A DNA stretch of 64,000 nt, from NCBI GenBank assembly GCA_964016885.1, contig OZ024760.1, positions 24,428,001-24,492,000 on the forward strand, written 5' to 3'. Of the stretch, positions 24,190-59,610 are shown piece by piece; the stretch's first letter is position 1; every line of letters starts with the position of its first letter. This DNA comes from Eledone cirrhosa (lineage: Eukaryota). The translations under genes and the position numbers were made by a program. The notes under the pieces are model-generated. The model searched no databases, was not told the origin of the DNA, and saw only the letters and a program-made list of their open reading frames with translations.

Positions 24190-24878
24190 CATCTTCATAT
24201 ATATGTCCCTGTGTATGTTATTGTAAATATATATATATACAATAACATATAATATATAATATATATAGCGTTATTTTGAAATAGATATATACATAAACAA
24301 ATACATACATACATACATACATATCCACGTGTCTGTGAATTTGTATATACCAATATATAGCAATATATACGTGATAAAATACATATATAAAAACAAAAGT
24401 AATTTCCAAAGAATATGTTAGCCAGAATATGTTCAAGTGATTCTATAGTGAATTTCTCTTTTATTGAATTCCTATTGGTCTTTTATATATTTTCGAAAGC
24501 TCCGTCGTTTACGCCAAGATATATGACTTGAAATAATGCAACTCGTTGTTCTCTTTAACCATAGAAAAATACCACGCCACTAAAACTCTCTCCAGCAGAA
24601 ATTCACAAAGAATTCATGTAGGCATGCACATACACGCTCAGAAACATAAACACATACACACACACACATATATACACGTATATATATATATGTATATGCA
24701 TATGTATATATATATATATATATATAATATAAATGTGCGTGAATATGTCTATATGTTTATACACACAGACATATATATATATATATATATATTTACACAC
24801 ACATAGAGACACACACACACATATATATATATTTCGTTTCTGAATTTATTGGCAACATGACCCTCCCAAAGTATAACA

Positions 24879-24920
<42 letters not shown>

Positions 24921-25106
24921 TAATTTAATATATCAACTAACATAAGCGCACAGATGCACGCCCATGCCAGCAAATACACAGGTTATGTCATAGTACCTAG
25001 GTGGTTCAATGCAGGAGAATGCAGAACAATAATATAAAGGACGTAAAATAAAAAAATATTTTTTTAAAAAAAATTTAAAAAAAATTTTTTTCTTACTTAA
25101 ATTTTC

Positions 25107-25188
25107 ACTCCAACTAATTAGTTTCTGCAATGGGATAAAGACAGTTACGTAATTCAACTGTCGAGAATTCATTGCGTCATCAGGAAGT
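25107..25188 (-). ncRNA. Hammerhead ribozyme, unit 1
   Basis: ACUUC-CUGAUGA-C-GCAAUG...CAUUGC-A-GAAA-CUA(AU)UAG-UU^GGAGU. Confidence 0.85.
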
Positions 25189-25663
25189 CTATTCTCAGTT
25201 AAGTTTCCAGGCAATGCGCGGACACTGGCGGCTCATATAAAAATAATAATAATTCGGTAGATCGAACAGCTTGCGAGGACTGAATTCTATGTACCGAAAT
25301 TCTCACTGCTTCAAGTCAAATGGCCGATTCTAAAGAATCAATCACGTGACACAGAGGCTAGTTAGAAGGAATGGGATGGTAAGATGACTGACGCCTACTA
25401 ACACCCCAAAAAAATTTTTTTAGAAGTGGTTTTGACAAGTTTGCTCGACAAATCAGTGATTTGGAGATAAATATAGATAATTTAATATATCAACTAACAT
25501 AAGCGCACAGATGCACGCCCATGCCAGCAAATACACAGGTTATGTCATAGTACCTAGGTGGTTCAATGCAGGAGAATGCAGAACAATAATATAAAGGACG
25601 TAAAATAAAAAAATATTTTTTTAAAAAAAATTTAAAAAAAATTTTTTTCTTACTTAAATTTTC

Positions 25664-25745
25664 ACTCCAACTAATTAGTTTCTGCAATGGGATAAAGACA
25701 GTTACGTAATTCAACTGTCGAGAATTCATTGCGTCATCAGGAAGT
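25664..25745 (-). ncRNA. Hammerhead ribozyme, unit 2
   Basis: Same motif, offset +557. Confidence 0.85.
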
Positions 25746-26220
25746 CTATTCTCAGTTAAGTTTCCAGGCAATGCGCGGACACTGGCGGCTCATATAAAAA
25801 TAATAATAATTCGGTAGATCGAACAGCTTGCGAGGACTGAATTCTATGTACCGAAATTCTCACTGCTTCAAGTCAAATGGCCGATTCTAAAGAATCAATC
25901 ACGTGACACAGAGGCTAGTTAGAAGGAATGGGATGGTAAGATGACTGACGCCTACTAACACCCCAAAAAAATTTTTTTAGAAGTGGTTTTGACAAGTTTG
26001 CTCGACAAATCAGTGATTTGGAGATAAATATAGATAATTTAATATATCAACTAACATAAGCGCACAGATGCACGCCCATGCCAGCAAATACACAGGTTAT
26101 GTCATAGTACCTAGGTGGTTCAATGCAGGAGAATGCAGAACAATAATATAAAGGACGTAAAATAAAAAAATATTTTTTTAAAAGAAATTTAAAAAAAATT
26201 TTTTTCTTACTTAAATTTTC

Positions 26221-26302
26221 ACTCCAACTAATTAGTTTCTGCAATGGGATAAAGACAGTTACGTAATTCAACTGTCGAGAATTCATTGCGTCATCAGGAA
26301 GT
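26221..26302 (-). ncRNA. Hammerhead ribozyme, unit 3
   Basis: Same motif, offset +1114. Confidence 0.85.
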
Positions 26303-26970
26303 CTATTCTCAGTTAAGTTTCCAGGCAATGCGCGGACACTGGCGGCTCATATAAAAATAATAATAATTCGGTAGATCGAACAGCTTGCGAGGACTGAATT
26401 CTATGTACCGAAATTCTCACTGCTTCAAGTCAAATGGCCGATTCTAAGAATTACGTAACTGTCTTTATCCCATTGCAGAAACTAATTAGTTGGAGTGAAA
26501 ATTTAAGTAAGAAAAAAATGTTTTTAAATTTTTTTTAAAAAAATATTTTTTTATTTTACGTCCTTTATATTATTGTTCTGCATTCTCCTGCATTGAACCA
26601 CCTAGGTACTATGACATAACCTGTGTATTTGCTGGCATGGGCGTGCATCTGTGCGCTTATGTTAGTTGATATATTAAATTATCTATATTTATCTCCAAAT
26701 CACTGATTTGTCGAGCAAACTTGTCAAAACCACTTCTAAAAAAATTTTTTTGGGGTGTTAGTAGGCGTCAGTCATCTTACCATCCCATTCCTTCTAACTA
26801 GCCTCTGTGTCACGTGATTGATTCTTTAGAATCGGCCATTTGACTTGAAGCAGTGAGAATTTCGGTACATAGAATTCAGTCCTCGCAAGCTGTTCGATCT
26901 ACCGAATTATTATTATTTTTATATGAGCCGCCAGTGTCCGCGCATTGCCTGGAAACTTAACTGAGAATAG

Positions 26971-27052
26971 ACTTCCTGATGACGCAATGAATTCTCGACA
27001 GTTGAATTACGTAACTGTCTTTATCCCATTGCAGAAACTAATTAGTTGGAGT
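26971..27052 (+). ncRNA. Hammerhead ribozyme, inverted copy
   Basis: acttc ctgatga c gcaatg ... cattgc a gaaa ctaattag tt ggagt. Confidence 0.85.
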
Positions 27053-27119
27053 GAAAATTTAAGTAAGAAAAAAATTTTTTTTAAATTTTTTTTAAAAAAA
27101 TATTTTTTTATTTTACGTC

Positions 27120-27151
<32 letters not shown>

Positions 27152-27155
<4 letters not shown>

Positions 27156-27299
27156 AAGTATGACCCCCGACGGCAGAGCTCAAGCCGTTTCGACGTAGCC
27201 GTCGGGGTCATACTTTTTCCTATTTCCCACTCTACTACCCTAAGTATTGAGTACTCTGGTGCGTTATGGTCCATCTGGTTCCTTACCACAATTCCTTTG

Positions 27300-27301
<2 letters not shown>
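27152..27301 (+). mobile_element. Mini foldback family F copy (half-HHR plus tail)
   Basis: gacccc.gacggc.gagctcaagccgtttcgac, then tail ccactctactacc...ccttaccaca; (TA)n flanks. Confidence 0.8.
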
Positions 27302-27374
<73 letters not shown>

Positions 27375-28180: not shown

Positions 28181-28220
<40 letters not shown>

Positions 28221-32016: not shown

Positions 32017-32945
32017 TGCTACGTTCGGTTGTTTGTCGGAGATTTCCCCATAAGAGAATTTATTCTTATAGCTTGCTCGGATTGATTTTGTATATGGTTA
32101 ATTATGCTAATTAGAAGAAGAAATAGTATATATTTTAATACCTGATGATTCTAAAGACATGATTTATGATATAATGCTCTGATTTTTTAATTTTAATTTA
32201 TTAATTCTTCATAGAGCTTAAAAGTGAACAGTTGCAACATATATATATCTTTAACTTTATGTATATGAAAACCTTTATATTTAATAATCTCCCAATAGGT
32301 TGAGATTAAATTTGGCGATATTTGGCTGCGCTTTCTAGCAGCAAGCCTACCCGCCGTAATCAACCAATCACATTCTTTCTCTCTGGCTTACACAGCCACA
32401 TAGCGATTTTTAGCCATTTTTGAATCTAATTTTGGCGGGATCGGATTGAAAAACTAGATGTCTGATTTTGAGTTTGTCTCCTGATGAATCCTGGCTCAGG
32501 ACATTCCTATTATTTGGATGTCCCAAATAAGGAAGAAACCATGGTAGAGATATAATTACGGTATGTGCGCATTTCTTCTAAGTTTAATTTTACAACTAAT
32601 TGTGTATGGTTGATGGTATATTTAGTCAGTTTCTACATGCTGTCGAAATGTTGGATAAATACTCGAACGGGGCCGCCACGAAGAAGCTACGTTCGGTTGT
32701 TTGTCGGAAATTTCTCCATAAGAGAATTTATTCTTATAGCTTGCTCGGATTGATTTTGTATATGGTTAATTATGTTAATTAGAAGAAGAAATAGTATATA
32801 TTTTAATATCTGATGATTCAGACATGATTTATGATATAATGCTCTGATTTTTTAATTTTAATTTATTAATTCTTCATAGAGCTTAAAAGTGAACAGTTGC
32901 AACATATATATATCTTTAACTTTATGTATATGATAACCTTTATAT
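32017..32945. repeat. ~260-bp direct repeat at ~669-bp period
   Basis: gctacgttcggttgtttgtcgga...aactttatgtatatga at 32017 and 32686; related copy at ~54740-54975. Confidence 0.75.
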
Positions 32946-50234: not shown

Positions 50235-50372
50235 TTCTACAGCTGAGTAAACTGGAGCAATGTGAAATAAAGTGTCTTGCTCAAGGAAACAACACATCAC
50301 CCGGTCTGAGAATTGAACTCACAACCTTTCGATTGCAAGCCCAATGCTCTAACCACTAAGCCATGTGCCTCC
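50235..50372 (-). mobile_element. tRNA/CORE-like SINE head
   Basis: Reverse complement of ggcacatggcttagtggttagagc...gagttcaattctc...ccttgagcaagacactt. Confidence 0.7.
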
Positions 50373-55317: not shown

Positions 55318-55376
<59 letters not shown>

Positions 55377-55591
55377 TTCGTTTCTGAATTTGTTTAGCAA
55401 GATTCTTTATCTGAAATCGTGTGTTGAAACCGATATTGTTATACTTTGGGAGGGTCATGTTGCCAATAAGAAACACACGCACCAGTTGCTTTCACTTCAA
55501 TTTAATTTAATATATATTTATAAATTTACAAATTTATAAATTTCTGGTTGGTTGGTTGGTTCCACAACCAGATAGTTGTTTATATATATAT

Positions 55592-55636
55592 AGTCATAGT
55601 TCTTTCGTCACACACTCTGTGACCTCTTCAGTGACT
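55592..55636 (-). ncRNA. Minimal type I hammerhead ribozyme (mirror copy)
   Basis: Reverse complement of 59358-59402. Confidence 0.85.
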
Positions 55637-55932
55637 GGGGATTTCTTTCTTCGTTTCTGTGCCTTTCCTTTCTTCTATCCTACGCCATTTTGTTTGTGTG
55701 TGGGTTGCGTGCTCAGTTTGCGCATGCGCCACATCCGGGTGTCTGTGTGTGTTTGTGTTCATTTTTCTATTTTTCTATTTATATTTGTTTGTTTATTTAT
55801 TTATTTATTGTTGGTTGGTTGTTTGTTCTATGTGTGTGTGTGTTTTCATTTTGTCTTGTGTGTGTTTTCATTTTGTGTGTGTTTTCAATTGTAAGTTGTT
55901 TATATATGTGTGTGTGTGTTTTCATTTTGTCC

Positions 55933-56796
55933 TTAATTGTAAGTTGTGATGTTGCTGTTCCACTCATATTTTCTATTTAATTTTGGTTTTAATTCTTTTA
56001 TGCTTACTGCCTCTGTAATTTGCCTAAACATTGCGTCTTTCTTGTGTGTGGATTCTATTTTTATTTCTATGCTCTCTAATTTACCCCTGTGTTCTATCTT
56101 AGCATGTTGGTAGAGCACAGATGATTCTTTACTATCTTGGAGGTCTCGCCAGTGTTCATTTATTCGTTCCCCTATACTACGAGCTGTCTCACCTATGTAC
56201 ACTATATTTTTGTTTCTACATTGTCCCTCAGTACATCTTATGCTATATACTACATTTCTAGTTTTACAGTTAATATGGGGGCTTATTTTACAGGTTATAC
56301 ATTTCTTATCTATACATGAGGGTCTTTGGAACGGGTATGTCTTGCTAATAAGTGTTTTTACGGAGGTACCAGGTCTTTCTACTATCTTAATATTGAGATT
56401 ATGTTTCTTTAGGGCCCTTCTAAATTTGTAGGCTAGTTCACCTCTAGGGGTTGTATTGATGAACATTACACTCTGGTATTTATTGCTATCATACCATGAG
56501 TTTATTCTATTGGCCTTGTTCTTAGTTCTTTCTATTCTATTCCAAAATTTGCTCCTATACAAGGGGCAGGTCCCATTTATGTCATTATTTACCATTTTTT
56601 CCCATTTGGTTCTGGCTCCTTTATACACTCTGATTCTATCTCTCTGATTGTAGCCAGAGAACTGCATACGGTGGATGAAGTGTTGTATGTGTCTCTCTAG
56701 TTCTTCGGGGTTGCACATGCGGGACACATTTCTCATCACCCGTATCAAATCCGCAATCAGTATGTTGATTTTGGTATGGTCCGAAATGGCCGAGTT
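55933..56796 (-). CDS. PLE thumb / Cys-rich linker / GIY-YIG endonuclease, same frame as the RT after the TGA
   Basis: Read-through gives LIH*NSAISDHTKINILIADLIRVMRN. Linker C-x4-C-x2-C...C, then VVYSIRC...YIGETAR...RINEH...EAVSIKELKPKLN. Confidence 0.92.
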   Translation of the reverse strand, partial: NSAISDHTKINILIADLIRVMRNVSRMCNPEELERHIQHFIHRMQFSGYNQRDRIRVYKGARTKWEKMVNNDINGTCPLYRSKFWNRIERTKNKANRINSWYDSNKYQSVMFINTTPRGELAYKFRRALKKHNLNIKIVERPGTSVKTLISKTYPFQRPSCIDKKCITCKISPHINCKTRNVVYSIRCTEGQCRNKNIVYIGETARSIGERINEHWRDLQDSKESSVLYQHAKIEHRGKLESIEIKIESTHKKDAMFRQITEAVSIKELKPKLNRKYEWNSNITTYN

Positions 56797-58233
56797 TCAG
56801 TGGATCAGATGTTTGGAAGTCATGGGTTTGGCATAATGGGAATGGAGGATTTGTTTTTGGTTGTTAATAGTATCTAACCAGAGCTCTGTGTCTAGTACAG
56901 GTAATCGATGGTTGGGGTGTCTACTTGGGTAGTCTATAGTAACTCTAATGCTCTGGTGGATGGAGTTTGCTATTTGCTGGATGCTTTCCATTGTGTTTTT
57001 CTCAGGTTCCTGACTGTTCTTTAGTGGGGGTGTCTTAACTACGATGTTTATATCATCTACGTAGCGGGAGTACATTATCAGGGTTAATCTGTCTTCTAAT
57101 TGTTCTTTAAGTTTTTGTTTAAGTCTACTGTCCCACCATACCATGAACAAGTTAGCTATGTCGCCTGCAATGCTAACACCAATGGCTGCTCCTTCCTCTT
57201 GGGCATATGTTTTACCATTAAATTTGAACATATGTTCCTTAAGGGTTAATTTTATGCTGGCCCCTACCGCATGTGCAATCATTTTCTTCAGTTCATCGTG
57301 GTTTTCGGGTGTCCGTATGGCTCTGGTCCACCCGTTCCATCTATCTGTGTGGGTTTTCTTGGCCATTGAGGTAATGGTAGGTGGTCTGCCTCTTGCTGGT
57401 CTTGTAGGGCACAGGTTGCTAAGGTCATAAGTGTCTAGGTAACTATTACTATGGGTAAGCTTAAGTAGAAGTCCCAGCTCACTGGTATCAATCCCACGGA
57501 ACTCAACCTTGCTCTCGCTGATCATTTCGACGCATTTCTCCACAGCAAAATCCACGTCAATAGATGGATACAGGGACACAACATCCATACTGCCTATTAT
57601 GCAGTTTGTTAGGTCCCCAGATCGGTTACCCGCGTCGATTCTGCTGAGGAGGTCCTCCGTGCTGTCACACACATCTGGGGACATCTCAATGATGGGGCGT
57701 ATGATCAGGGAGAGGAAGTAGGACAGTCTGTAGTTACTAGCAATGTTAGCCCCACAGACTGGCCGTGTTGGTGGTCCCGCGACAGGGTCCCAGCCCGTTT
57801 TATGGTCTTTTCGAAGCCCATACAACGCCGGCACGTCATTGTTCCAGGCCTGGAAGTTGTTGGCAGTCCTTTTGTTGGGCTGCATTATATTTGTCCACAT
57901 CACCATATGGGCATTGAGGGTTTTTTCTCTGTCCTCATGCTCCTGTGGTGTTACCTCTCTTGTGTTAGTGATGTGGGGTTGCATTGCCTGGATGTAGTTT
58001 GGCAGGCTGTCAACCGACATTCTGCCAGACTTGTCTGTTGGAAAGCATGCTATCTCTCCATTACGCGAGCGCTGCATGAGCTTACGCAAGCCATTTGCAG
58101 ATTCTTCTCCCAGTTGCTGGGCCTCTATTCTATTATGCTTCTTGCTATACTGTTCTATAATATTTCTAAGTTCGGATTTAGCTATACTAAATTGTGCTTC
58201 TGTTTGTTCATCGACCTGCGACGGCAACTGCAA
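56797..58233 (-). CDS. PLE reverse transcriptase (5'-truncated; ends at an in-frame TGA)
   Basis: Motifs TDKSG, LYGLRKDHK, PTRPVC, GSMDVVSLYPSI (A), QEEGAAIGVSIAGDIANLFM (B), RYVDD (C), LPVLD (E), HYAKP. Confidence 0.93.
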   Translation of the reverse strand: MQLPSQVDEQTEAQFSIAKSELRNIIEQYSKKHNRIEAQQLGEESANGLRKLMQRSRNGEIACFPTDKSGRMSVDSLPNYIQAMQPHITNTREVTPQEHEDREKTLNAHMVMWTNIMQPNKRTANNFQAWNNDVPALYGLRKDHKTGWDPVAGPPTRPVCGANIASNYRLSYFLSLIIRPIIEMSPDVCDSTEDLLSRIDAGNRSGDLTNCIIGSMDVVSLYPSIDVDFAVEKCVEMISESKVEFRGIDTSELGLLLKLTHSNSYLDTYDLSNLCPTRPARGRPPTITSMAKKTHTDRWNGWTRAIRTPENHDELKKMIAHAVGASIKLTLKEHMFKFNGKTYAQEEGAAIGVSIAGDIANLFMVWWDSRLKQKLKEQLEDRLTLIMYSRYVDDINIVVKTPPLKNSQEPEKNTMESIQQIANSIHQSIRVTIDYPSRHPNHRLPVLDTELWLDTINNQKQILHSHYAKPMTSKHLIH

Positions 58234-59061
58234 CTGATTGCGGATTTGATACGGGTGATGAGAAATGTGTCCCGCATGTGCAACCCCGAAGAACTAGAGA
58301 GACACATACAACACTTCATCCACCGTATGCAGTTCTCTGGCTACAATCAGAGAGATAGAATCAGAGTGTATAAAGGAGCCAGAACCAAATGGGAAAAAAT
58401 GGTAAATAATGACATAAATGGGACCTGCCCCTTGTATAGGAGCAAATTTTGGAATAGAATAGAAAGAACTAAGAACAAGGCCAATAGAATAAACTCATGG
58501 TATGATAGCAATAAATACCAGAGTGTAATGTTCATCAATACAACCCCTAGAGGTGAACTAGCCTACAAATTTAGAAGGGCCCTAAAGAAACATAATCTCA
58601 ATATTAAGATAGTAGAAAGACCTGGTACCTCCGTAAAAACACTTATTAGCAAGACATACCCGTTCCAAAGACCCTCATGTATAGATAAGAAATGTATAAC
58701 CTGTAAAATAAGCCCCCATATTAACTGTAAAACTAGAAATGTAGTATATAGCATAAGATGTACTGAGGGACAATGTAGAAACAAAAATATAGTGTACATA
58801 GGTGAGACAGCTCGTAGTATAGGGGAACGAATAAATGAACACTGGCGAGACCTCCAAGATAGTAAAGAATCATCTGTGCTCTACCAACATGCTAAGATAG
58901 AACACAGGGGTAAATTAGAGAGCATAGAAATAAAAATAGAATCCACACACAAGAAAGACGCAATGTTTAGGCAAATTACAGAGGCAGTAAGCATAAAAGA
59001 ATTAAAACCAAAATTAAATAGAAAATATGAGTGGAACAGCAACATCACAACTTACAATTAA
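58234..59061 (+). CDS. Inverted duplicate of the PLE thumb/GIY-YIG region inside the pseudo-LTR
   Basis: Mirror of 55933-56760. The upstream part of ORF 57802-59061 is antisense RT sequence. Confidence 0.85.
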   Translation: MIADLIRVMRNVSRMCNPEELERHIQHFIHRMQFSGYNQRDRIRVYKGARTKWEKMVNNDINGTCPLYRSKFWNRIERTKNKANRINSWYDSNKYQSVMFINTTPRGELAYKFRRALKKHNLNIKIVERPGTSVKTLISKTYPFQRPSCIDKKCITCKISPHINCKTRNVVYSIRCTEGQCRNKNIVYIGETARSIGERINEHWRDLQDSKESSVLYQHAKIEHRGKLESIEIKIESTHKKDAMFRQITEAVSIKELKPKLNRKYEWNSNITTYN

Positions 59062-59357
59062 GGACAAAATGAAAACACACACACACATATATAAACAACT
59101 TACAATTGAAAACACACACAAAATGAAAACACACACAAGACAAAATGAAAACACACACACACATAGAACAAACAACCAACCAACAATAAATAAATAAATA
59201 AACAAACAAATATAAATAGAAAAATAGAAAAATGAACACAAACACACACAGACACCCGGATGTGGCGCATGCGCAAACTGAGCACGCAACCCACACACAA
59301 ACAAAATGGCGTAGGATAGAAGAAAGGAAAGGCACAGAAACGAAGAAAGAAATCCCC

Positions 59358-59402
59358 AGTCACTGAAGAGGTCACAGAGTGTGTGACGAAAGAACTATGA
59401 CT
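59358..59402 (+). ncRNA. Minimal type I hammerhead ribozyme (PLE 3' UTR)
   Basis: AGUCA-CUGAAGAG-GUCACA(GAGUG)UGUGAC-GAAA-G(AA)C-UA^UGACU. Confidence 0.85.
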
Positions 59403-59553
59403 ATATATATATAAACAACTATCTGGTTGTGGAACCAACCAACCAACCAGAAATTTATAAATTTGTAAATTTATAAATATATATTAAATTAAATTGAAGT
59501 GAAAGCAACTGGTGCGTGTGTTTCTTATTGGCAACATGACCCTCCCAAAGTAT

Positions 59554-59610
<57 letters not shown>

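Follow-up and report, generated by a model that had tools for sequence, protein, structure and literature searches.

The locus described here raises the question of how a short non-coding repeat with a hammerhead ribozyme motif came to lie, as a tandem array with an inverted arm, inside a (TA)n tract of the Eledone cirrhosa genome, and which machinery and which template produced it. Within the window, that is the whole 64,000-nt stretch of contig OZ024760.1 that was analysed, the array consists of 2.77 units of 557 bp followed by 1.22 units in inverted orientation (Table 1). Two units (24916-25472 and 25473-26029) are 100% identical, and the third extends to 26451. Unit positions are counted from the first base past the predicted cleavage site. 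A preliminary description had reported about 2.75 direct and 1.2 inverted units in (TA)n, outer junctions on TATAT motifs and the absence of a credible open reading frame (ORF). The measurements agree with each of these points: both arms end on TATAT, at two sites designated A and B, and the longest ATG-initiated ORF in the circularised unit encodes 79 aa, is of low complexity and crosses an A/T tract. The description had also likened a tail of ~115 bp to that of a Penelope-like element (PLE) at 55 kb. A tail does exist, but at 118 nt it differs in length from the 60-nt tail of the PLE.

Table 1. Features of the hammerhead array, its flanks and the PLE copy at 55 kb (window positions)
Feature	Position	Strand	Details
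Left (TA)n tract	24879..24913	.	
Long arm, 2.77 units	24914..26451	-	3' end site B (unit position 198, TATAT) at left (TA)n; inner 5' end at unit position 331
Tail, 118 nt, between sites A and B (unit positions 81-198)	24914..25031	-	present only at the long-arm end
Type I hammerhead, copy 1	25107..25188	-	core CTGATGA at 25183; predicted cleavage between 25112 and 25111
Type I hammerhead, copy 2	25664..25745	-	core CTGATGA at 25740; predicted cleavage between 25669 and 25668
Type I hammerhead, copy 3	26221..26302	-	core CTGATGA at 26297; predicted cleavage between 26226 and 26225
Head-to-head joint	26448..26451	.	4-nt microhomology (GAAT) of the two arms
Inverted arm, 1.22 units	26448..27127	+	inner 5' end at unit position 514; 3' end site A (unit position 80, TATAT) at right (TA)n
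Hammerhead, 3' half only	26491/26492 (cleavage point)	+	short arm
Type I hammerhead, copy 4	26971..27052	+	core at 26976; predicted cleavage between 27047 and 27048
Variant 464A	26954; also 25205, 25762, 26319	+ (26954)	all four covering copies, both arms
Right (TA)n tract	27128..27151	.	
Autonomous PLE copy, putatively Neptune-like	55373..59561	.	minus arm 58231-55373 to its site B; plus arm 58233-59561 to its site A

Several properties of the unit are those of a retrozyme. It is a non-coding tandem unit a few hundred bp in length with a low GC content (35%) and without a pair of long terminal repeats (LTRs), it contains no ORF for reverse transcriptase (RT) plus GIY-YIG endonuclease as expected of an autonomous PLE, and a type I hammerhead is present in each tandem unit. 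The circular form of the unit is predicted to be self-paired (z -3.6), and the tail region includes a strong predicted hairpin, unit positions 60-230 folding at z -3.1. Tandem Repeats Finder, run with a period limit of 500, missed the 557-bp unit. When a 481-bp part of the unit was compared with contigs of four sequencing runs, cover was deep in one run, thin in two and zero in a run guessed to be RNA. This comparison bears on the existence of the unit and not on its expression or on the present array; since the unit is covered in separate runs, it exists outside the assembly.

In total, the array holds four complete type I hammerheads and one 3' half, on the minus strand in the long arm and on the plus strand in the short arm. 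Hammerhead positions follow the standard numbering convention. In copy 4, helix I has 5 bp, a C.A mismatch precedes a 6-bp helix II with an extra hairpin, helix III is the palindrome AACTAATTAGTT and the cleavage site is GUU. The palindrome, the GUU site and the extra hairpin had all been recognised in the preliminary description. Its statement that the hammerhead is intact has to be qualified: helix II opens with the C.A mismatch, a place where canonical hammerheads have a purine-pyrimidine pair. This mismatch is kept in 13 of 13 aligned sequences from sister families, which were located beside the arrays and via the arrays. These families, which are 69-91% identical and include ones with units of 527 and 541 bp, also retain the core and the palindrome. 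Rfam searches at gathering scores gave no hammerhead match in the window and the local fold is no better than that of shuffled sequences (z -0.06), so that support for the structure comes from covariation. Among the 13 hand-picked sister-family sequences, 96.6% of the cells are paired and 7 of 18 pairs have changed on both sides; structures slid along the alignment as a control pair at only 35-47%. None of 500 shuffles reached the covariation score, a count that is not a probability because the 13 sequences are related.

In the predicted monomer fold, the core CUGAU pairs with a helix III strand, and the active fold is estimated to cost 2.5 kcal/mol locally, lying 5.9 kcal/mol above the minimum of the circle. 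By a rough estimate for two copies joined through a 10-bp palindromic duplex, the active form would be favoured by about 1.4 kcal/mol. These predictions fit a ribozyme that would cut multimers and rest in monomer circles, as described in PMC4209133. Of nine Xenopus retrozymes, one cleaved in vitro (bioRxiv 10.64898/2026.07.22.740005), a ratio that we count against an active ribozyme here, together with the C.A mismatch and the GUU site.

A search of the 3.0-Gb assembly with the unit yielded 1900 candidates, of which 40 were scored, and 150 of 228 matches were listed. Together with the window, 38 other loci among the matches listed provided 63 arms in 40 arrays. One array was excluded as a DNA duplicate (the second array of L037, with the same right flank), leaving 39 insertions, which are the best-scoring ones and thus biased towards long young arrays. 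At L037 (G000:C4:196736500-196744000), part of the array and the right flank were duplicated ~1.9 kb downstream, at the DNA level and after insertion. All 63 arms end at site A or site B, that is 80 or 198 nt past the cleavage site. Each of the 23 two-armed arrays has one A end and one B end, and of the 17 one-armed arrays, 7 terminate at A and 10 at B. Inner ends are scattered, joints mostly overlap by 0-5 nt, and arms in this sample reach up to 5-7.5 units. In a further sample, selected by one end pattern and composed of the first 30 loci for each pattern, the other end was found in 21 of 22 distinct complete two-armed copies, the exception being an alignment split by a poly-T expansion; many of these insertions are short, often with fewer than two units per arm. 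Both ends are likewise kept, at corresponding positions, in the sister families with units of 527 and 541 bp (50/55 and 50/52 arm ends, respectively, with overlapping loci counted).

At least 300 young insertions, of which the array in the window is one, are dispersed in the genome. Counts of exact patterns for TA-abutting ends gave 308 A-ends and 851 B-ends, the B pattern also catching close subfamilies, and the shared hammerhead 3' half has 12089 exact matches in the assembly; reversed controls gave 0. The reading as a dispersed non-coding retrozyme is thus supported, an assembly artefact is excluded at the family level, and the arm-end rule agrees with the view of a single insertion of Penelope-type geometry. 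Indeed, a tandem-plus-inverted layout with a tail delimited by two fixed 3' ends is that of a non-autonomous PLE. Sites A and B are read as PLE start sites because two internal RT start sites define the tail of an anole PLE in vitro (PMC11167929).

The targets point in the same direction: the 3' ends nearly all abut TA (median run 29 nt), and insertion into microsatellite or AT-rich sequence, with a short target duplication where one is visible, is characteristic of PLEs. Few empty sites could be reconstructed since the flanks are mostly simple repeats. A TA-poor site (L138) has a target duplication of ~9 bp with zero added TA, and at L060 a (TA)n run lies within a duplicated 12-bp segment of a host repeat that is itself free of TA. 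In one-armed copies, the TA run at the 3' end is longer than that at the 5' end in 12/16, 17/18 and 15/19 cases (44/53). Addition of TA by the RT is no more than a lead here, as 5' deletions and later truncations could also yield longer 3' runs. The further idea that the RT stutters on UAUAU start sites and adds (TA)n in a telomerase-like manner, thereby seeding its own future targets, is speculative and improbable. PLE-type insertions of several families pile up in the same TA tracts, in the window as well. Near positions 3050-3090 of L050, where a one-armed 5' end lies, a 19-nt stretch of the left flank recurs as an inverted repeat on the other side of a TA tract, as expected from snap-back fill-in.

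Based on the footprint, the retrozyme very probably was mobilised by PLE-type machinery, and the PLE at 55 kb is a candidate mobiliser. This copy has a stop in its minus arm between the RT and endonuclease regions; a full unit elsewhere in the genome has 4286 bp, a 1267-aa ORF and one minimal hammerhead. A search with the PLE endonuclease returned 150 of 150 scored matches at 100% identity, which argues that the family is active. The PLE obeys the same end rule as the retrozyme: among 19 insertions read, all 18 complete two-armed copies have their ends at 164 and 224. Its closest protein homolog is 70% identical and is an octopus protein by name, Pfam gave only a weak RVT_1 match for the PLE of the window, and the label 'Neptune-like' is provisionally applied solely on account of a Cys-rich linker as described in PMC8557442. 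The PLE ORF (L100, L102-L104) begins 139 nt past the hammerhead cut, with both end sites within the first codons, and carries an Asn/His/Thr-rich insert like those of rotifer PLEs (PMC3846280). In one PLE insertion (C4_102), an arm begins 5 nt past the cut and crosses one junction.

The retrozyme and this PLE have the end rule in common but no sequence, which leaves the PLE at 55 kb as a candidate only. The 557-bp unit showed no likeness to it (best E 0.58), to the 3' ends of its relatives or to 30 GIY-YIG loci of other PLE families (30 read among 150 listed). Thus, in the PLE families sampled, no autonomous partner with a similar 3' end was found. Searches with the endonuclease of the local PLE and with a 35%-identical homolog returned almost only the local family.

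To learn about the template, variants were compared within and between insertions after masking of homopolymer positions (90 of 557). Pairs of arms are identical in 22 of 23 cases within insertions, as compared to 70 of 506 across insertions; permutation gave a mean of 4 and a maximum of 12 identical pairs in 100000 rounds. Deviation within arms amounts to 32 of 92004 base calls (0.035%), relative to 0.43% between insertions. In 10 of the 39 insertions, a variant private within the sample is fixed in all covering copies. Genome-wide, variant 464A of the window was found in the four copies of this array and in a single further unit whose background differs, and the haplotype of the window has no other copy in the assembly as judged by exact patterns, which copies changed further can escape. 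Likewise, 75A is present in all 8 copies of one insertion and otherwise only in a family 12-14% diverged, and 381T with 386C is present in all 7 copies of another insertion and in one unit on another background. For all three private variants tested genome-wide, no other copy was found on the same background, an argument that is weakened by the possible absence of source arrays from the assembly. For a variant to fill both arms, it must have gone through a single-unit stage followed by re-amplification. Variants within insertions comprise 20 singletons, to which assembly errors may add, and 3 that are partly shared, a pattern that fits arrays born long.

The PLE behaves similarly. After masking of simple repeats, of the N-rich insert (420 bp) and of 195 bp of 3' UTR, differences are 0.07% within arms and 0.07% between arms, as compared to 0.41% between insertions, and private variants have become fixed in as many as five copies, spanning both arms. 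Exceptions are a unit-long stretch with 7 discordant sites in one array and one arm-specific variant. In the retrozyme family, the longest array (15 units) is built from five unit types that recur in repeated blocks; it probably expanded at the DNA level or is misassembled, and for this reason it was dropped as evidence for rolling synthesis. In two further arrays a variant is common to adjacent units, and DNA-level duplication is thus visible in 3 of the 39 arrays.

The positions of the cleavage site and of the ends are informative as well. Both start sites lie downstream of the cut, and a linear cut monomer would therefore yield only 80 or 198 nt, so that arms of several units need a ligated or uncut junction. 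This junction is exact in 223 of 225 copies, with zero indels, which argues against template jumping. Inner 5' ends fall within -1 to +25 of the cleavage site in 25 of 233 cases (11.5 expected), and within -1 to +3 in 5 cases (2.1 expected, p 0.065; an A/T hairpin there may contribute). In one insertion both arms begin exactly at the cleavage site, and in 7 of 87 pairs (1.1 expected) both arms stop at most 3 nt from the same unit position. From the equal 5' ends and the enrichment near the cleavage site it follows that RNAs with a free 5' end, whether linear or nicked, or priming by fold-back (PMC3846280) also play a part. The original claim of a rolled circle thus gains indirect support from the single haplotype per insertion, but it has to be qualified, since linear cleaved templates are indicated too and some arrays grew at the DNA level. 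A monomer circle is the simplest fit to the haplotype data, and we hold rolling reverse transcription of such a circle to be reasonably probable.

How the arms could otherwise have acquired one haplotype depends on the template assumed. A PLE-type insertion might be copied from a linear read-through multimer that is uncleaved or cut only in part, provided that the parents are young and uniform and that array length is regenerated by DNA-level duplication. Such a scenario has been proposed for the anole PLE (PMC11167929), which in vitro used uncleaved RNA and did not need its hammerhead. It would accommodate the excess of 5' ends near the cleavage site, the equal 5' ends in both arms, the duplications detected in three arrays and the discordant stretch in an autonomous PLE array. 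However, a variant of one unit cannot fill four to eight copies in both arms of an insertion unless it passes through a single-unit bottleneck and is re-amplified, the private variants tested have no detectable parent, singletons prevail over shared variants, and inspection by eye revealed no heterogeneous unit order common to both arms. Moreover, dimeric hammerheads should cut best in tandem transcripts (PMC4209133). We regard a linear multimer as possible but rather unlikely. Compatible with either template is the formation of the second arm by fold-back self-priming of the first cDNA, followed by a cut at A or B. Self-priming has been proposed from palindromic joints (PMC3846280) and would also account for identical arms as well as for the pairs with equal 5' ends. 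In 80 of the 87 pairs, however, the distance between the 5' ends exceeds 3 nt, both sites serve as the end of one-armed copies, and both correspond to RT start sites in vitro in another PLE (PMC11167929), which makes fold-back an improbable origin of the second arm.

Two other explanations concern the unit itself rather than its copying. According to a proposal in bioRxiv 10.64898/2026.07.22.740005, one pseudo-LTR-like unit inserts and expands locally as a satellite by unequal crossover, the RNA step being limited to about one unit or less. Growth of this kind fits the 15-unit array, but young, near-invariant insertions already hold several units in both arms, the older sister families sampled are not longer (up to 2.9 units, in loci of only 3.6 kb) and variants are mostly singletons; as a general explanation it is very unlikely. 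The unit could also be nothing but the 3' end, that is the pseudo-LTR, of an autonomous PLE outside the sample, which had been named in the preliminary description as a possible refutation. The genome has many PLE families and the searches scored only the best candidates, which leaves some room for this idea. Against it, units join head to tail with nothing between them, and none of 57 one-armed 5' flanks shows an arm continuing into an ORF. PLE protein matches in four of these flanks are three N-terminal stubs of neighbouring insertions and a mid-RT piece with other sequence intervening. A four-family profile found no pseudo-LTR among the 30 GIY-YIG loci or other PLE 3' ends, its one strong match being an antisense repeat copy at a locus edge. 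The unit was thus not seen as part of an ORF-bearing PLE at the loci examined, and the chance that it is one is slight at best.

Returning to the monomer circle, we propose the following course of events. The tandem array would be transcribed, and its hammerheads, predicted to act as dimers via the palindromic helix III, would cut the transcript into monomers. A host ligase would close the monomer to a circle, probably of 557 nt, by analogy with known retrozymes. A PLE protein would nick both strands of a (TA)n tract and, in keeping with the ends observed, prime cDNA at site A on one strand and at site B on the other. Each cDNA crosses the unit junction zero to several times and halts at a variable point, and the haplotype of the template is thus found in all units and both arms. 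The two cDNA ends would then be joined by a microhomology of a few bases, as seen at the joint, giving rise to the head-to-head form; if only one cDNA survives, a one-armed array would result. Some templates would be linear, owing to an opening at the hammerhead site or at another point, and the length of a minority of the arrays would later be altered by DNA-level duplication. That the retrozyme and the 4286-nt PLE are both copied from hammerhead-made monomer circles, and that this is the general origin of the pseudo-LTRs, tandems and inverted arms of PLEs, is a tentative extension with less than an even chance of being right.

The family resembles metazoan non-LTR retrozymes (PMC7229834; bioRxiv 10.64898/2026.07.22.740005) in its dispersed, non-coding tandem units with one type I hammerhead each, its low GC content and its self-paired predicted circle, and the unit length is within the range of 51-972 bp given in the preprint. 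The weak palindromic helix III and the mismatch at the base of helix II are reminiscent of the axolotl motifs. In contrast, inverted two-armed insertions, two fixed ends and one haplotype per insertion are not described in the available text of these sources, and the words 'tail', 'haplotype' and 'junction' are absent from the main text of the preprint. The 557-nt unit also exceeds the RNAs of 170-400 nt shown there, and its helix II is long and branched. With endonuclease-positive PLEs (PMC8557442, PMC11167929, PMC3846280), the family has in common the head-to-head arm, the tail at one end, variable 5' truncation, a microhomology joint, microsatellite targets and short target duplications (~9 bp at L138, ~12 bp at L060). 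It differs in that the unit has no ORF, in that the tail exceeds the 30-40 nt in print, and in the absence of the conserved terminal motif common to the local PLE families. Chlamys elements such as MRC1 are likewise non-coding PLE parasites with multicopy head-to-tail insertions (PMC8557442), but they generally resemble their autonomous partner at the 3' end; the unit resembles no sampled PLE, has no pseudo-LTR relative among the families sampled and carries a conserved, full hammerhead.

A circular template was proposed for PLEs in 2014 (PMC4209133) and for retrozymes in 2020, along with PLE mobilisation of the latter (PMC7229834), and the link between both has been argued from phylogeny in a preprint that also puts forward a pseudo-LTR origin (bioRxiv 10.64898/2026.07.22.740005). 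Non-autonomous head-to-tail PLE parasites are also in print, and the mechanism behind tandem, inverted and tailed PLE insertions has been called an open question (PMC8557442). In the passages of the cited papers that were available, a direct test of a circular template was not found, and the searched literature, whose supplements could hold examples, gave no cephalopod retrozymes and no footprint or haplotype evidence for retrozyme insertion. The link between retrozymes and PLEs is therefore already published, and less novel than the preliminary description implied; what appears to be added is the footprint and haplotype evidence.

This genome thus offers a readable PLE footprint, with two fixed starts and one template per insertion, and a compact pair for experiments, namely a substrate of 557 nt and an active PLE whose 1267-aa ORF is intact, by which the circle-template model of PLE replication becomes testable. 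If the model is true, it assigns genomic hammerheads a function and gives the mobilisation of retrozymes by PLEs a mechanistic basis, and a share of the genome's (TA)n and repeat load may be accounted for.

Further elements were noted in the window. The TA tract to the left of the retrozyme also holds, about 30 bp away, a very small two-armed copy of the PLE at 55 kb (24829-24882), which comprises a short B arm and a 37-nt A arm. To the right, a third two-armed element (27152-27302) has a short inverted arm, a direct arm and a tail of ~85 nt, and related copies lie near 28200, 31700 and 51500. At about 860-1200, a two-armed element with a palindromic joint carries a minimal hammerhead (helix III GTAC) on both strands; the same GTAC motif occurs ~390 bp downstream of a GIY-YIG ORF at L326, a possible autonomous partner of this two-armed family. 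The only Rfam match in the window is a partial, tRNA-like one of 31.2 bits on the minus strand (50306-50363), possibly the head of a SINE.

The genome seems to hold many retrozyme-like families, as at least ten further families of hammerhead-like motifs were noted (L033, L042, L065, L092, L115, L149, L167 and window position 32480), some with tandem units of ~310-480 bp and inverted arms. Finally, the E-box-like motif GTCACGTGATT is present at window positions 25336-25350, 25893-25907 and 26809-26823, and all sister families have retained it. Motifs resembling it are found in the 3' region of another PLE family (L315), and GTCACGTGATT may represent a promoter element.
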